From an uncultured Subdoligranulum sp. (GTDB lineage: Bacteria; Bacillota; Clostridia; Christensenellales; CAG-314): 50,961 nucleotides of DNA. The stretch spans positions 1 to 50,961 of the forward strand of contig CAZTCB010000005.1 in NCBI GenBank assembly GCA_964612455.1, in the 5' to 3' direction. Position 1 is the first letter of the stretch. The number at the start of each line of letters is the position of its first letter. Position numbers and translations under genes: made by a program. Positions 918 through 17,302 of the stretch are shown here, one piece after another. The notes under the pieces are model-generated. The model saw only the letters and a list, made by a program, of their open reading frames with translations. It was not told the origin of the DNA and did no database searches.

Positions 918-1379
918 ATTCGTCTCCTTTTGTTTAGCACTATTCTCGGCATTAGTTTATCACACCGACAGATAAAACGCAAGTCGTTGCTACGTCTTGG
1001 GGAGCCTTTCGTTGTCGCCAAGCAACTCCACAACCGCGTCGCGACACCGACAATCGATAAAAACAAACAACATTAACCCCTATCGGCGCTAAACGAAGTT
1101 AATTACCAACCAAAAAGTAACAGCATCAAAATGTTTCACGTGAAACGTTTTAACAGACGCCAAACTCGCCGCTACGATTGTTTCACGTGAAACATTTACT
1201 CTACTCACCACTTAAATCCATTGAAATACCCACCCCGTGCACTATAAAACATTTTATATGATACTCCAAGAACGTTAAACCATAACAAACACCAAAACAG
1301 AAAAACTTTAAAACCAAACTTTAATTCAATCCATGCAAAAAAATTGCCTTCTTCGTTTAAATGTTTTCTTGCATATGTT

Positions 1380-1411
1380 AATAATGAACATAATAATATA
1401 TGTTCATTATT
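1380..1411. repeat. Perfect 13-bp inverted repeat with a 6-bp spacer (AATAATGAACATA-ataata-TATGTTCATTATT)
   Basis: Read directly from the sequence. Lies in the most AT-rich part of the gene-free island. Confidence 0.9.
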
Positions 1412-1590
1412 GAGAAAAATTTATCCCTTTTTGGTAAAAAATCACGATTTTAAAACGCAAAAAAAGTGAGGTTTTTCCTTATGTTCAGACTTTTTAAGGC
1501 CCCTAAAACGGTTTCAGGCAGAATATTTTTTAAAATTATCCTTTTGGGTGACCGATTTTGTTGCCATTCTGCTCCAATTGACGCATCAAT

Positions 1591-1637
1591 CGAATAAAAT
1601 TTTATGGTTAGCCATTGCTAACTCGCGATTTTATTCG
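1591..1637. repeat. Nested inverted repeat: outer arms CGAATAAAAT / ATTTTATTCG, inner arms GTTAGC / GCTAAC
   Basis: Outer arms 1591-1600 and 1628-1637. Inner arms 1607-1612 and 1617-1622. Read directly. Confidence 0.85.
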
Positions 1638-2469
1638 CATTTTAGCTTTTTACGCGTTTGCATTTATAATTGTTTCATATGAAACAACAATTTACACCCC
1701 ACAACCACCAATATGTGTGCTTTATCGGCAAAAAAACATCATACGAACCTTATTAATAAGTTATTTATCTCGCTTTTATTTAAAATAAGCGCAAAAATCA
1801 AAACAAACCTCAGATATCGCTGTTTCACGGGAAACAATCGGTGACAAACGTTAATAACCATAAATATTAACATCATTTATGCTGTTTCACGGGAAACAAT
1901 CAGGCGCACCCGATAATAAAAATACAACCGTTATTTATGCTGTTTCGCGGGAAACAATGCGATTTTTTAAAACAAATTAAGATTATTTGTTGATATTGTG
2001 CGATTTTTTTCAAGAGTAATCATTGCCGCCATAAAATTCAGCAGAATATAACCGTAACCTATTTTTATAATCTGTTTTATTGTCGTTTTGTATAATTGTC
2101 TGTTTAATTGTGGCGTCGGCGTTTACTTTTTTATTAGTAGTTTGAAATTAGCTTTTGTATTATAATTTTAATTTAATTTAGGCGTTGTTTCACGCGAAAC
2201 ACAGATTATCATGCCTTATTATACGCATTATTGTTAACAACCTTTTGTGTATTACTTTTTATATAAAACAATATTAAATAAAATGAATAAATTTATTATT
2301 GGCGTGTGTGTTTTGTTGGATTTATTGCCATGTTTCACGTGAAACGCTCGTTGGTTTTTTTGTTTAGTCAGGCGTATTGTTGGTTTTAAGTCGTTTTTTG
2401 CTGTAAAAGAAGGTCGTTTTTTTGTTGTTAAATAATGTTTTCGTTTATTTCGTGTAGCCAATATCTTGC

Positions 2470-2507
2470 GAGCAAAGATAATCTACAAGTGTAGATTTTC
2501 TTTGCTC
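2470..2507. repeat. Long imperfect hairpin (17-bp arms, 1 mismatch, 4-nt loop)
   Basis: GAGCAAAGATAATCTAC (2470-2486) pairs with GTAGATTTTCTTTGCTC (2491-2507). No adjacent gene is assignable to it. Confidence 0.8.
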
Positions 2508-2690
2508 TTTCGTTCTTTCGTTGTGTTTATACGTTTATTCTCTCTGTTAAGGGCACTATTTTCGTCGTTTTTGGGGTTCGCATGCATTTCTTTCGCGAGC
2601 TCTCGTCGAAGGGTTTATTTTTATGTTTATACCTTACTTTTACTTTCTTTGATTTATTGACCATTTATCTTTATTATTTTGTTTTTATCC

Positions 2691-2719
2691 TTGACATTAA
2701 TACGATTTCGTATTATACT
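2691..2719 (+). promoter_or_regulatory. Sigma-A-type promoter of the marR-MATE operon with an 18-bp palindromic operator in the spacer
   Basis: TTGACA 2691-2696, 17-nt spacer, TATACT 2714-2719. Palindrome TAATACGA-tt-TCGTATTA at 2698-2715. Confidence 0.7.
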
Positions 2720-2749
2720 ACCGCTTGTCTGTATGTCTAAGGAGAAAAA

Positions 2750-3190
2750 ATGGACAACAAAAAACTCGTCACAAAGCTTATGCTCGGTATCAATAAACTT
2801 GACGGCATTTATTATCTCTTTGCCAAAAACAGCTCCGTCAATGAAAACGCGCTATCGTTTTTTTACGCATTGTCGGACGGACAGCCTCATTCGCAAAAAG
2901 AAATTTGCGACTCGTGGTTAATACCGCGCACGACCATAAACACGATAGTAAAAACAGCAATGGCAAACGGTTATATTTGCTTTTCGCCAAAAGTCCGCAA
3001 TAAAGAAAAATTCATCCTGTTGACGCCAAAAGGACAAAAATACGCCGACGAGCTCCTGAAGAGCGTCTTTGCGGCGGAAAACAACGCGATGACCGAAACG
3101 TTAACCGCCTTTTCTCCCGATTTTGTCGACGCGATAGAAAAATTCGGCGACTGTTTGCAGCGCGAGCTCGATTTTTACTCTCATCGCTAA
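2750..3190 (+). CDS. MarR-family winged-helix transcriptional regulator
   Basis: 146 aa. Size and helix-turn-helix/wing pattern are typical of MarR. SD AAGGAG lies upstream. Immediately precedes an efflux pump gene. Confidence 0.75.
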   Translation: MDNKKLVTKLMLGINKLDGIYYLFAKNSSVNENALSFFYALSDGQPHSQKEICDSWLIPRTTINTIVKTAMANGYICFSPKVRNKEKFILLTPKGQKYADELLKSVFAAENNAMTETLTAFSPDFVDAIEKFGDCLQRELDFYSHR

Positions 3191-3228: not shown

Positions 3229-4563
3229 ATGACAATTCAACTTTCGGACCATTTCAGCTATAAAAAACTGTTAAAATTTACTCTACCTTCTATTGCGATG
3301 ATGATTTTTTCATCCATATACAGTGTCGTGGACGGATTTTTCGTTTCAAACTTTGCAGGAAAAACCCCGTTTGCCGCGGTCAACCTCATTATGCCCGTTC
3401 TTCAGATTCTCGGAACAGTCGGTTTAATGTTCGGTTCCGGCGGCACGGCTCTCGTCAGCAATACCTACGGAGCAGGGGACAAAGAAAAAGCAAACCGCCT
3501 TTTTTCCCTCATTGTTTACGTCGCTTTCGGCGTAAGCATAGTTTTGGCGGTAGCGGGGTTTATTTTTATACGAGACATCGCAATCTTGTTTAAGGCATCC
3601 GGCGAGTTGCTCGACGACTGCGTGTTGTACGCTCGCATTATCCTCTGCGCGCTTCCTTTTTACGTTTTGCAGGTAATGTTTCAAAGCTTTTTTACCGCGG
3701 CGGAAAAACCCCAACTCGGGCTTTACGTCACGTTGTCGGCGGGCTTTATCAATATAATACTCGACGCCGTACTCGTGATTTTGCTCCCACAGGAGTTAAA
3801 ACTCGCGGGCGCCGCCGTCGCTACCGCATTGTCTCAGGCGGTGGGAGGTATAGTGCCGTTGGTTTACTTTTTCAGAAAAAACAGCAGTTTTCTTCGACTC
3901 GGAAAAACCTCTTACGACGGAAAAGCGTTGCTTAAAACCTGTACCAACGGCTCGTCGGAGTTTATGAGCAATATTTCTATGAGTCTCGTCGGCATGCTGT
4001 ACAACGCTCAACTCATGAAATACGCGGGGGAAAACGGAATTGCGGCATACGGGGTAATGATGTACGTCAGCATGATTTTTGCCGCGGCGTTTATGGGGTA
4101 TACCATCGGTATCGCGCCGGTGGTCGGTTTTCATTACGGTGCGCAAAATTTCGACGAGTTAAAATCGCTCAGAAAAAAAAGTCTCCTGCTCGTATCCGTA
4201 TTCAGCGTCGCGATGATTGTTTCGGCAGAACTGCTTGCCTTGCCGATTTCTAAAATTTTCGTCAATTACGACGAAGAATTGCTGTCGCTTACCGTTTCGG
4301 GATTTCGTATTTTTGCAATTAGTTTCGTGCTTTTCGGTTTCAGTATTTTTTCGTCGGGTTTCTTTACCGCGCTCAACGACGGTCTGACTTCTGCACTGAT
4401 AGCGTTTTTACGTACGCTCGTGTTTCAATCGGCAGCCGTTATATTCCTTCCTTTGATTTGGGGGATAGACGGGGTATGGATATCGATTGTCGTGGCAGAA
4501 CTCGCGTCGGTTATTTTCTGTTGTTTCTTTCTTATTATCAAAAGAAAAAAATACCACTATTAA
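3229..4563 (+). CDS. MATE-family multidrug efflux transporter
   Basis: 444 aa, about 12 hydrophobic helices, MATE-like N-terminus (LLKFTLPSIAMMIFSSIYSVVDGFFV). Confidence 0.85.
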   Translation: MTIQLSDHFSYKKLLKFTLPSIAMMIFSSIYSVVDGFFVSNFAGKTPFAAVNLIMPVLQILGTVGLMFGSGGTALVSNTYGAGDKEKANRLFSLIVYVAFGVSIVLAVAGFIFIRDIAILFKASGELLDDCVLYARIILCALPFYVLQVMFQSFFTAAEKPQLGLYVTLSAGFINIILDAVLVILLPQELKLAGAAVATALSQAVGGIVPLVYFFRKNSSFLRLGKTSYDGKALLKTCTNGSSEFMSNISMSLVGMLYNAQLMKYAGENGIAAYGVMMYVSMIFAAAFMGYTIGIAPVVGFHYGAQNFDELKSLRKKSLLLVSVFSVAMIVSAELLALPISKIFVNYDEELLSLTVSGFRIFAISFVLFGFSIFSSGFFTALNDGLTSALIAFLRTLVFQSAAVIFLPLIWGIDGVWISIVVAELASVIFCCFFLIIKRKKYHY

Positions 4564-4777: not shown

Positions 4778-5500
4778 TCATACGGTTGAAATTAAAGTCA
4801 GCACCCATTCGACAAGCGGTTTTATTATTTTTTCGCCGATTACGCTGTCGGTAAACACGGCACTCTCCACGAAATTTCCTATAATACCGATGAAACTACC
4901 GACGAAAGTCAACGCCGCCGTTGCACATACCACTATTGCCGTTATTTTTATTCCGCCGAGCACTAATCCCAAAAACCTGTTTATCGTACTTATACCGGGC
5001 TGCTTTGCTATTTTTTTCATCGTTAATTTAAGTATAAGCACGGCTATCGAAATAACGATAAACAACACTGCAAACGCTACCGCTTTGTTTACTACATGCG
5101 TCAACGTTTGCGGCAAAACGTCTTTTAACGCCGCTTCGCTTTGCGGAAACTCTTCTATCAGCCAGTTAAATACTCCCAGCTCTACGATTATCCCGGGTAC
5201 GCCGATTTGTTTTATTACCTCTTTTACCGTTTCTTTATTACTCTCGTCGCTCCAGTCTGCGACCATGTCGTAATACTCGCTGCCGCCCAGTTTTTCGTCC
5301 GTTATTTCTACCGTTTTTTCGTATATCACACCGCTGTCTGTCGGAAACAACTCTGCCATAACCCCGCAAAACGATACGGATAAAAGCACGGTAACCAGTA
5401 CCCCCGCAAGACTAAACAACTGGTCGACGAAACCTTTTATTGCGCCTATTATCATAAACACGGCGAGTGCGATTAAAAAACCTACGTCAAACCAGTTCAT
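4778..5500 (-). CDS. cvpA: CvpA-family membrane protein
   Basis: N-terminus MNWFDVGFLIALAVFMIIGAIKGFV is typical of CvpA. Multiple TM helices. SD GGAG upstream. Confidence 0.7.
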   Translation of the reverse strand: MNWFDVGFLIALAVFMIIGAIKGFVDQLFSLAGVLVTVLLSVSFCGVMAELFPTDSGVIYEKTVEITDEKLGGSEYYDMVADWSDESNKETVKEVIKQIGVPGIIVELGVFNWLIEEFPQSEAALKDVLPQTLTHVVNKAVAFAVLFIVISIAVLILKLTMKKIAKQPGISTINRFLGLVLGGIKITAIVVCATAALTFVGSFIGIIGNFVESAVFTDSVIGEKIIKPLVEWVLTLISTV

Positions 5501-6906: not shown

Positions 6907-6933
6907 TTTTTTCCTTTCCTTTCCGTTAGATTT

Positions 6934-6961
6934 ATTTTAACATAAGAATCGTTTTTGTCAA
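6934..6961 (-). promoter_or_regulatory. Likely dnaA promoter
   Basis: Minus strand: TTGACA (6961-6956), 16-nt spacer, TAAAAT (6939-6934). Confidence 0.55.
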
Positions 6962-7064
6962 CCGTACTGTTTTATCTTTTTTATTTTTTAGTGTATTTGT
7001 CAACGCTTGCTTTTTTTTAAATTTTGTTATATAATGTATTCGGTGAGTAGACGGGTATCTTGCG

Positions 7065-7139
7065 TTATCCACACCGTACAACTTTTTTTTTCTTGATTTT
7101 TTGTGTATAAAAAAGCGTTTTTTCACAAATTTATCCATA
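7065..7139. promoter_or_regulatory. DnaA boxes in the dnaA/dnaN divergent intergenic region (candidate oriC core)
   Basis: TTATCCACA 7065-7073 (perfect). TGTGTATAA 7102-7110 (1 mismatch, reverse orientation). TTATCCATA 7131-7139 (1 mismatch). Confidence 0.7.
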
Positions 7140-7283
7140 CGTTTCGTTTTGTTTAAAAACTGCTTTTTTAGCTTTATTTTTCAGCGACTTTTCGTCCCTA
7201 AAAAAAAGTTGTCAACAATTCTACATTACCTACTAACACTACTTCTAATTAAAAGAAATGATAAATATAAAGGAGGCAACAAA

Positions 7284-8387
7284 ATGAAATTGATTTGCGA
7301 AGGTATAGATTTAAGCGACGCTATAAATAAAGCAAGCAGAGCACTGCCTGCCAAAGCCGTCAATCCCGTACTCGAAGGAGTTTTTTTAACCGCTAAGGGA
7401 AACACTCTCACCGTGTACGCGTCGGATACCGAAATATCTATAAAGAAAACGATAAACGCCGATATCATAGAAGAAGGGACGGCACTTTTGCCGGGTAGAT
7501 TTTTCGGTGAATATATGCGTAAACTATCCGACCAACAGGTAGAGTTGTTTACAAACGAAAAAAATCAGCTACGTATCAAATACGGCGACAGCGAAGGATT
7601 CGTGCAGTTGCTCGACAAGACGGAATATCCTTTCGCCGAGCAAGAAAAAGGCGATTATAAAGTAACGATTTTACAAAAAGACATTAAAGACGCGATAGAA
7701 AAAACGATATTTTCAGTCGCTCAGGACGACACCCGTCCCGTATTAAAAGGCTGTTTAATGGAGCTTGACGGCAAAAGAATGACTATGGTCGCGCTTGACG
7801 GGTATCGCCTTGCTTTAATAAAAAAACCGTTAACGGAAGAAATAGCGGCAAAAAACGTCATCGTACCCGCAAGGAGTCTTTACGAGGCGTCGAGATTAAT
7901 GGACAGTCAGGATAAACAAGCCGAAATATACGTAACCGGCAAGAGAATAGTTTTTGACTTGCAGGACGCTGAGGTTACCGCGCATCTAATCAACGGCGAG
8001 TTTGTCAACTATCGCCAGATTTTACCGGACAACTACGTCACCAACGTAACGGTAAATAAAAAACTGTTTGAAGAGAGCCTTGACAGAGCGGGATTGGCAA
8101 GCCGTCAGGAAAAAAACAATCTCATTAAACTCGAAGTAAAAGAAAAAGTAATAACGATAAGCGCAACGTCCGAGTTAAGCAACGTAAAAGAAAACCTTGC
8201 GATAAACCTCAAAGGTAAAGATATTACCATTGCGTTTAACGCAAAGTATCTCGCCGATTGCTTGAGGGTGATGGAAAACGAGTTTATAAAAATCAATTTC
8301 ACCTCATCGGTTTCGAGCGCAACCATTACCCCGTGTGAATCGGACGATTGCCTATATCTCGTGTTGCCCGTCAGACTCGTAGGATAA
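7284..8387 (+). CDS. dnaN: DNA polymerase III beta sliding clamp
   Basis: Starts MKLICEG... 7 nt after AGGAGG (7271-7276). The ORF-track start at 7101 is an upstream extension. Typical DnaN N-terminus and length (367 aa). Confidence 0.96.
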   Translation: MKLICEGIDLSDAINKASRALPAKAVNPVLEGVFLTAKGNTLTVYASDTEISIKKTINADIIEEGTALLPGRFFGEYMRKLSDQQVELFTNEKNQLRIKYGDSEGFVQLLDKTEYPFAEQEKGDYKVTILQKDIKDAIEKTIFSVAQDDTRPVLKGCLMELDGKRMTMVALDGYRLALIKKPLTEEIAAKNVIVPARSLYEASRLMDSQDKQAEIYVTGKRIVFDLQDAEVTAHLINGEFVNYRQILPDNYVTNVTVNKKLFEESLDRAGLASRQEKNNLIKLEVKEKVITISATSELSNVKENLAINLKGKDITIAFNAKYLADCLRVMENEFIKINFTSSVSSATITPCESDDCLYLVLPVRLVG

Positions 8388-15409: not shown

Positions 15410-16180
15410 ATGTCAAAAATTATCGCCATCAGCAATCAAAAAGGCGGGGTAGGCAAGACCACTACCGCCATCAACATGTCGGCTTGCATTGCCGCCACGG
15501 GGAGAAAAGTCCTGCTCGTAGACCTCGATCCGCAAGGCAACGCCACCACGGGTATCGGTATCGACAAGAGCAAGTTGAAAAAGAACATTTACGACGTGCT
15601 CATCGACAACGATACGGTTGCCAACGTCGTGTTGCCCACGCAGGTCGAAAACCTCGATTTGCTGCCGTGCAACAAAGACCTCGTAGGCGCGGAGATACCT
15701 ATGAGCGGGTTTAACAAGAGGGAGTTTGTGTTAAAAACCGCGCTCGAGAGCGTTTCGGACAAATACGACTACGTCTTTATTGATTGTCCGCCGTCCCTCG
15801 GATTGCTTACTCTCAACGCCCTCACGGCGTGCGACGGGGTGATTATACCCATACAAAGCGAGTTTTTCGCACTCGAGGGGCTTAGTCAGCTGATATATAC
15901 CATTCGTCTCGTTACCAAGCGTACCAATCCCGACCTCAAGGTCAAGGGCGTCGTGATGACGATGTACGACAGCCGCAGTATCTTGACGAGACAAGTCACG
16001 GCGGAAATTCAAAAATACTTTGGCGCGGCGGTGTATACGGTACCCGTCCCGCGTAATATCAAGGTTACGGAGGCTCCGAGTTTCGGCGTACCCGTGTCCG
16101 TCCATGCTCCGCGCAGCAGCGGAGCGGTTGCGTACCAGAGGATAACGCAACAGTTTTTAGCGAAAGAGGAGGGTAACTAA
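15410..16180 (+). CDS. parA: Chromosome partitioning ATPase ParA/Soj
   Basis: Deviant Walker A KGGVGKTT. 256 aa. Confidence 0.94.
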   Translation: MSKIIAISNQKGGVGKTTTAINMSACIAATGRKVLLVDLDPQGNATTGIGIDKSKLKKNIYDVLIDNDTVANVVLPTQVENLDLLPCNKDLVGAEIPMSGFNKREFVLKTALESVSDKYDYVFIDCPPSLGLLTLNALTACDGVIIPIQSEFFALEGLSQLIYTIRLVTKRTNPDLKVKGVVMTMYDSRSILTRQVTAEIQKYFGAAVYTVPVPRNIKVTEAPSFGVPVSVHAPRSSGAVAYQRITQQFLAKEEGN

Positions 16181-17302
16181 ATGGCAGCGCAGAGAAAAGG
16201 TCTCGGCAGAGGATTGTCCGCATTGTTGGGGATGAACGACATGGGCGACGACGTATTGAACACGCCGGTGGCACCCGGTGTCAACACGGGCGATACCGAC
16301 GTTGATAATACGCACACTGAGCTTCTCGACGCGACGGAGGAACTAACCCTGACGCCCGACGAGGTCGTTTCGGACGCATCGGACGCGGAAAAACCCGATT
16401 TGTCCGACGTGACGGAGACGTCGACGGATTTTTCGGACGTTTCGGTTGAGGATTTTTCACCCGCCGACGAAAAAGAAACGACTCAACGCGACGCGATAAT
16501 GGCAATAAACATAGACGTTGCCGATATAGACCCCAACTACGAGCAACCGCGAAAGAATTTTGACGAATCGGCACTCAACGAGTTGGCGGAGAGTATTCGT
16601 CAGCATGGCGTCATTCAACCTATCGTAGTAGTGCGCATGGGCATGCGCTTTATGATTATTTCCGGTGAACGTCGTTGGCGCGCGAGCAAGATTGCGGGGC
16701 AAAAGACCATTCCCGCTATCGTCAAAGACTACACTCCTCAGCAGATTAAAGAAATAGCCATTATCGAAAACTTGCAGAGAGAGGATCTCAACCCCATCGA
16801 AGCCGCCCGTGCGATAAAGCAACTGATGGAAGAGTTTAACATGACTCAGGAGATGGCGGCAGACCGCATAGGCAAGAGCCGCAGTGCGATTGCCAACACC
16901 CTCAGGTTGCTTACCCTCGACGACAGAGTGCTCGACATGATAGGCAAAGGCGAGTTGTCGGCGGGACACGGCAGGACGCTCGTGGTGATAGAAAACAAAG
17001 ACGAGCAGTTTGCTCTCGCAAAGAAAGCCCGCGAAAGCCAGATGAGCGTGAGAGAGCTCGAAAAGAAAGTAAGGGATTATTTAAACCCGGTCAAAGAGGA
17101 TAAAGAGCCTGCCCGCAAGAAAGAAGTCTGCCTCGAGCTCAAAGACCTCGTCGTCAATATGCAGAGGGCTTTCGCCACCAAGGTCACCGCGGTCGGCAAC
17201 AATAAAAAAGGGAGAATCTGTATCGATTATTTTTCAAGCGACGACCTCGACCGTATTTGCGAAATGATACGGGATTGGCAACCGACGTTGCCTAATGCGT
17301 AA
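16181..17302 (+). CDS. parB: Chromosome partitioning protein ParB/Spo0J with an acidic insertion after the N-terminal ParA-interaction motif
   Basis: KGLGRGLSALL, IDPNYEQPRKNF, GERRWRA (arginine patch) and an HTH region. The start codon abuts the parA stop. Confidence 0.94.
   Translation: MAAQRKGLGRGLSALLGMNDMGDDVLNTPVAPGVNTGDTDVDNTHTELLDATEELTLTPDEVVSDASDAEKPDLSDVTETSTDFSDVSVEDFSPADEKETTQRDAIMAINIDVADIDPNYEQPRKNFDESALNELAESIRQHGVIQPIVVVRMGMRFMIISGERRWRASKIAGQKTIPAIVKDYTPQQIKEIAIIENLQREDLNPIEAARAIKQLMEEFNMTQEMAADRIGKSRSAIANTLRLLTLDDRVLDMIGKGELSAGHGRTLVVIENKDEQFALAKKARESQMSVRELEKKVRDYLNPVKEDKEPARKKEVCLELKDLVVNMQRAFATKVTAVGNNKKGRICIDYFSSDDLDRICEMIRDWQPTLPNA

Follow-up and report, generated by a model that had tools for sequence, protein, structure and literature searches.

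A dense array of eight predicted parS sites in a gene-free island near dnaA of an uncultured gut Clostridia lineage

Known parS arrangements and how the array compares

Plasmid centromeres of tandem repeats, such as F sopC, are non-coding arrays of close ParB-type sites. The array described here comprises eight predicted parS sites and lies close to dnaA in a stretch of 50,961 nucleotides (hereafter the window) from an uncultured member of the Clostridia. It resembles the F sopC type in being a closely spaced non-coding array that stems partly from tandem duplication, but its sites are of the chromosomal consensus and would be served by a chromosomal ParB, its spacing is irregular (47-492 bp), and its context is that of dnaA, cvpA and housekeeping genes. 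In Bacillus subtilis, many parS sites lie inside genes. The four strongest sites of this species are 5-39 kb apart (PMC5815017). The window has the same consensus, its ParB finds its closest solved structure in the Spo0J of B. subtilis (6SDK, 3.7e-54), and ParA/Soj and SMC-ScpAB are present as well. In contrast with B. subtilis, all sites of the window are confined to a non-coding stretch of 1.2 kb, and Noc is missing from the genome.

Clustered sites are known from other chromosomes. Caulobacter crescentus has 5-7 parS sites within ~5 kb, ~8 kb from ori, and ParB spreads ~2 kb per site; the rationale given for clustering is that it raises the local ParB concentration, as each site supports only ~2 kb of spreading (PMC5815017). 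Both arrangements consist of clustered sites near the origin with graded predicted strength, whereas the sites of Caulobacter are inside essential or high-fitness-cost genes and ~4x sparser, and those of the window occupy a dedicated non-coding island. In Myxococcus xanthus, 22 parS repeats are found in ~3 kb, ~4 kb upstream of parA (PMC3899335). The likenesses here are the same 16-bp parS family, a density of about 7 sites per kb versus 6.6 in the window, and the layout as a single cluster close to the origin, within a few kb of parAB, whose edges carry variant sites. The window differs in having 8 sites, in AT-rich gene-free DNA, 13 kb from parAB across oriC; over half of these sites are variant-centred, and they are predicted from sequence, whereas ParB binding has been demonstrated in Myxococcus. 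Reviews regard parS number as variable and treat clustering as general and not yet understood (PMC7333895, PMC5815017).

The sites, the island and the neighbouring genes

The window is contig C5 of a fragmented MAG (53 contigs, 1.26 Mb, 97.8% complete). Searching it with TGTTTCACGTGAAACA at ≤2 mismatches returned exactly eight 16-mers between 1132 and 2346 (Table 1), the same eight that the initial annotation had listed as parS-type sequences with no more than two deviations. Dinucleotide shuffles gave a mean of 0.01 matches, and 0 of 100 shuffles reached eight. The rest of the assembly contains no other 16-mer within 2 mismatches of TGTTTCACGTGAAACA; the array is thus the sole cluster, with no equally good matches dispersed over the 1.26 Mb. 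All eight sites agree with the palindromic parS consensus tGTTtCAcGTGAAAca at 0-2 mismatches. Their ten arm bases (GTTTC/GAAAC) are intact in every case, differences between sites being restricted to the outermost bases and the central four, and the canonical 14-bp core is found only in the three outermost sites (1132, 1179 and 2331). The arms-only motif GTTTCNNNNGAAAC has 12 copies genome-wide, 8 of them in the island. The other four are isolated, on contigs C8:810, C51:1442, C4:17409 and C10:18229; the first of these (TGTTTCGTGCGAAACA) has the flanking T and A as well and may act as a weak secondary site.

Table 1. Coordinates of the features discussed in the text (window numbering)
Feature	Position	Strand	Remarks
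unknown 190-aa gene	345-917	minus	left neighbour of the island
gene-free AT-rich island	1077-2749		1673 bp, GC 0.317 (contig 0.473)
parS site 1	1132-1147		TGTTTCACGTGAAACG, canonical 14-bp core; left half of doublet, 47-bp spacing
parS site 2	1179-1194		TGTTTCACGTGAAACA, perfect consensus match
89-bp non-coding core	1448-1535		76% identity to G005; between parS doublet and larger site group in both species
parS site 3	1671-1686		TGTTTCATATGAAACA, symmetric CATATG centre
tandem duplication	1806-1958	plus	unit ~60 bp, carries sites 4-6
parS site 4	1821-1836		TGTTTCACGGGAAACA, CACGGG centre; C at position 7 in one half-site
parS site 5	1883-1898		TGTTTCACGGGAAACA, CACGGG centre
parS site 6	1941-1956		TGTTTCGCGGGAAACA, CGCGGG centre; 2 mismatches, both central
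parS site 7	2186-2201		TGTTTCACGCGAAACA, CACGCG centre
parS site 8	2331-2346		TGTTTCACGTGAAACG, canonical 14-bp core
MarR-like gene	2750-3190		right of the island
MATE gene	3229-4563		after the MarR-like gene
cvpA	4778-5500	minus	
dnaA	5542-6906	minus	divergent from dnaN
dnaA/dnaN spacer, probable oriC core	6907-7140		DnaA boxes 7065 (perfect), 7102, 7131
dnaN	7101-8387	plus	heads cluster, then rnpA, yidD, yidC, jag, mnmE, mnmG, rsmG, parA, parB
parA	15410-16180	plus	soj-type Walker ATPase; AAA_31 2.2e-70, CbiA, ParA
parB	16181-17302	plus	373 aa; adjoins parA

The copies of the tandem duplication, 1806-1900 and 1869-1958, are 78% identical (E = 1.6e-13), which accounts for sites 4-6 and shows local duplication at work in the growth of the array. 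Site 8 with its flank forms an inverted repeat with site 2 (22 nt, 91%).

The five inner sites keep both GTTTC/GAAAC arms and vary in their centres, at positions 7-10. A base other than A occupies position 7 of one half-site in four of the five, and in the sites at 1821, 1883 and 1941 this base is C, with G retained at position 2. According to the literature, parS differs from the Noc site at two places of the half-site, G to A and A to C (positions 2 and 7 in the numbering of the 16-mer), and a Noc-binding site (NBS) is defined as having, in each half-site, A at position 2 together with C at position 7 (PMC7383237). An assignment of the inner sites as Noc-NBS was rejected: no Noc is encoded, position 2 is G in all eight sites, and just three of them have C at position 7, each in a single half-site. 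Across 1030 predicted sites, position 7 was reported to be highly conserved (PMC3899335); binding may therefore be weak or absent at the sites that vary there. The same variants do turn up in other genomes. The CCCGTG variant, as in site 4, is also found inside the parS clusters of G014, G025 and G072, and the CATATG variant TGTTTCATATGAAACA is the only site type of a 5-site array in G173. This last genome (1.2 Mb, another Clostridia family) carries five TGTTTCATATGAAACA within 225 bp (C1:19935-20158) and no canonical parS, and its lineage appears to use the CATATG-centre variant as parS. We think that the inner sites of the window are probably functional but weaker.

The initial annotation had also described an AT-rich zone free of ORFs at about 1080-2690, and this zone can now be delimited to 1077-2749. 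It is the longest stretch of the assembly without an ORF of at least 90 aa (the runner-up has 1226 bp) and also its most AT-rich long stretch. Several other readings of this zone were tried and discarded. A hidden small gene was rejected, as ORFs of at least 20 aa lack conservation and the core that can be aligned with the sister species (G005; DnaA protein 96% identical, DNA ~76%) has stop codons in its translations in both species. Decayed genes were rejected with tblastx against relatives and the genome itself, in which the only sequence shared was one core in G005, and a mobile or repeated element was rejected because copies of the island are absent elsewhere in the genome. The island contains two further inverted repeats. 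One is perfect, with 12-nt arms (1380-1411, AATAATGAACAT(8 nt)ATGTTCATTATT), and is placed where the island is richest in A+T; conservation in G005 is lacking. The other has 18-nt arms, 94% complementary, with a 2-nt loop (2470-2507, GAGCAAAGATAATCTACA / TGTAGATTTTCTTTGCTC); it is ~200 bp upstream of a promoter-like site of the MarR-like gene (2691-2719) and could be an operator or a hairpin.

The parAB genes had been placed about 13 kb to the right of the array, which is where they are (15410-17302). ParB is formed by an N-terminal KGLGRGLSALL peptide, an acidic insert, a GERRWRA CTP-binding motif, an HTH and a C-terminal dimerisation domain, and its recognition segment reads GKSRSAIANTLRLLTL ... 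GHGR. It scores above the cut-off of TIGR00180 and below that of the Noc model (228, cut-off 315). As this is the only ParB-family gene of the genome, no Noc paralogue was found there. SMC, ScpA and ScpB are all encoded. G005, in which most sites are canonical, has the same HTH and GHGR segments in its ParB as the window. Altered ParB specificity was thus rejected as the origin of the variant centres, which are not paralleled by a change in the protein. The acidic insert, of low complexity and ~85 aa long (residues about 20-105), separates the N-terminal peptide, which stimulates ParA, from the CTPase domain. It exceeds that of G005 by 29 aa, and the ParB matches at most other loci of the family span just ~250-310 aa.

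From the end of the array, the distance to the dnaA 3' end is 3.2 kb and that to the dnaA/dnaN spacer 4.6 kb. The spacer contains the three DnaA boxes with ≤1 mismatch that are closest to the island and, at ≤2 mismatches, five boxes versus 1.3 ± 1.1 in shuffles. The cumulative GC skew of the window has its minimum near 7000, in this same spacer. Boxes and skew minimum together put the array within ~5 kb of oriC, on the side opposite parAB. The densest DnaA-box cluster of the assembly is located on another contig (C10:9155-9555, 4 boxes with ≤1 mismatch in 400 bp, exceeding the spacer) and, by synteny with G005, would sit some 15-20 kb from the island.

Relatives and the wider class

In the same family and order, parS sites are present in 29 of 31 genomes, usually 2-7 of them, nearly always on one contig and within 0.1-2 kb. 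Examples are 4 sites in 130 bp (G011), 4 in 185 bp plus 1 more (G004), 5 in 700 bp (G017) and 7 in 1.3 kb (G005). Across the genus of the window, the counts are 2, 2, 2, 5, 7 and 8. A gene-free island of more than 1.5 kb is found only in the species of the window and in G005, where the ORF-free island measures 2.6 kb. The two islands can be aligned solely at the parS sites and the 89-bp core. Clustered parS has thus been kept in the relatives while the flanks diverged, and this retention of the sites in replaced surroundings is the strongest computational support for a function of the predicted array.

Mapping the proteins of the window onto 20 loci gave a family layout of ...mnmG-rsmG-parA-parB-cvpA-(parS cluster), and at most relatives' loci the parS cluster adjoins cvpA and/or parAB. 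In the genus of the window, the cvpA-parS block comes after an inverted dnaA and not after parB, which points to a genus-specific rearrangement at the origin; the cvpA-parS linkage outlasts this suggested rearrangement.

The survey of the class indicates how unusual such an array is. Of 295 high-quality Clostridia genomes, 59 (38 of 175 genera) contain a pair of perfect 14-bp cores at a distance of 29-59 bp; a control with the reversed pattern gave none. The left doublet of the window (1132/1179, 47 bp) is of this type, and local duplication has probably turned an ancestral Clostridial doublet of parS sites into the present array. At ≤2 mismatches, 150 genomes of the class have mostly 1-5 matches and two others have 8 or 9; judged by position, such high totals are mostly scattered chance matches, true tight clusters having 2-6 sites. 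The array of the window is the largest among ~180 Clostridia genomes tallied, followed by G005 (7) and G170 (5-6). It is an unusually large example on a continuum of a layout that is common in Clostridia. The initial annotation had started from the premise that parS sites of Firmicutes are few and dispersed, and had likened the array to a plasmid centromere. Neither idea survives the frequency of close doublets: the premise of dispersed sites reflects Bacillus only, and the array is the extreme of an ordinary Clostridial layout.

The predicted centromere and alternative readings

We think that the island is very probably the single centromere of the chromosome, of the ParABS type. A dedicated chromosomal centromere had already been suggested initially, and the suggestion is strengthened by what was observed: the sites themselves, their uniqueness in the genome as sole cluster, the proximity to the origin, the conservation versus the diverged flanks, and a complete protein set with one ParA/ParB pair and SMC-ScpAB. 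The binding and sliding of ParB, the loading of SMC and the ranking of the sites by strength we infer from established ParABS biology. ParB dimers would recognise the parS palindromes, with the strongest preference for the three outer sites of canonical sequence, and, on binding CTP, would close into clamps that slide onto the adjacent gene-free DNA. Eight loading sites in 1.2 kb could in this way build one dense partition complex ~4.6 kb from oriC. ParA, stimulated through the N-terminal peptide of ParB, would act on this complex to separate the sister origins. The partition complex is also the likely entry point of SMC-ScpAB, which makes the array a probable SMC-loading zone.

One property of the island, its mirrored strand composition, does not fit into this model. 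In 1000-2750 of the window, the left part of the plus strand is enriched in A+C (keto skew about -0.3) and the right part in G+T (about +0.3). G005 (contig C72, 40400-43100) has the same polarity despite its non-aligning sequence and switches within its group of parS sites; in G004 the polarity is weaker, and the parS clusters in the other genera of the family lack it. The polarity is much stronger than in other intergenic spacers, which mostly have |keto skew| < 0.15, and ordinary replication skew was therefore rejected as its cause. Flanking transcription was rejected as well, since the genes on either side point away from the island here but towards it in G005, and so was inverted duplication, as parS-masked local alignment gave scores within the shuffle range.

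This polarity bears on two other readings. The island could belong to the replication origin, as an additional oriC module or as the place where the forks really diverge, with the palindromes as iterons or another origin-linked element. It would then make sense that, read 5' to 3' outward from its centre, the strand is G+T-rich on both sides, in G005 likewise; that the cumulative GC skew on the 74-kb contig of G005 falls over 40 kb, stays nearly flat from the island to the dnaA/dnaN spacer and then rises; and that the island surpasses all long stretches of the assembly in AT content while the spacer has three boxes only. Against this, the repeats are exact matches to the universal parS consensus, the polarity is missing from the parS clusters of other genera, and no DnaA box (TTATCCACA) with ≤1 mismatch occurs in the island, where boxes with ≤2 mismatches are not enriched either (9 versus 7.3 ± 2.4 in shuffles). 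With the box scans negative there and the boxes clustering in the dnaA/dnaN spacer, an oriC or iteron identity was rejected, and we regard this origin reading as very improbable, in line with the lower rank that iterons had been given at the outset. Hardly more probable is an evolved "regional" centromere with an architecture of its own, with strong canonical sites at the edges, weaker variants inside, a transcription-free track for the clamps and a conserved outward G+T polarity. If it applied, the polarity could guide or retain ParB or SMC, or mark the real point of fork divergence; with the latter, this genus would have a fused centromere and origin.

A different division of the array deserves more weight, although we consider it unlikely too: the three canonical sites alone would be the centromere, and the five variants would be decaying or neutral duplicates or would have another ParB role, such as silencing the flanking MarR-MATE operon. 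The inner centres deviate from the consensus at positions 7-10 while the DNA-reading residues of ParB are unchanged with respect to G005, and the MarR promoter-like site is only 345 bp from site 8; in Pseudomonas aeruginosa, ParB at intergenic parS sites represses neighbouring genes (PMC7022226). Neutral decay is nevertheless hard to reconcile with both 5-bp arms being intact in five of five inner sites, far above chance, nor does it fit well with CATATG as the sole site type in G173 or with the recurrence of CCCGTG in three other clusters, and arrays also occur in relatives with no MarR nearby. To the idea that a structured non-coding RNA has the palindromes as its stems, or that the island is the remnant of an integrated plasmid or phage with its own centromere, we give hardly any credence. 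The island is indeed long, AT-rich and unlike its flanks in composition. Still, Rfam gave no match inside it at E ≤ 1, the lone hit (mir-46, E 0.69) being at 1-72, outside the island, and neither strand of the 89-bp core folds more stably than shuffles (z = +0.30 and +0.23). A conserved RNA, which the initial annotation had named as what could explain the palindromes away, is thus not apparent. As for a remnant, the search for mobile-element genes, pseudogene remnants and repeat copies was negative, there is just one ParB gene in the genome, and the chromosomal context is conserved family-wide, with the array next to cvpA, dnaA or parAB.

The centromere reading implies no new mechanism, and what sets the array apart is limited to its size, the dedicated gene-free island and the variant centres among its sites. 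The reading would locate the centromere and the rough origin in an uncultured lineage of gut Clostridia with small genomes. Moreover, the dispersed pattern of Bacillus appears unrepresentative of the phylum, tight non-coding clusters being common in Clostridia. The range from 2 to 8 sites within one genus, together with the visible tandem duplication, offers a natural series for studying why parS sites multiply and cluster, a question that is open according to the reviews (PMC7333895, PMC5815017). Tandem parS arrays exist outside Clostridia too: an uncultured Bacilli MAG (L016:19005-19179) carries four TGTTCCACGTGAAACA sites with an exact 53-bp period, ~7.7 kb downstream of dnaA.
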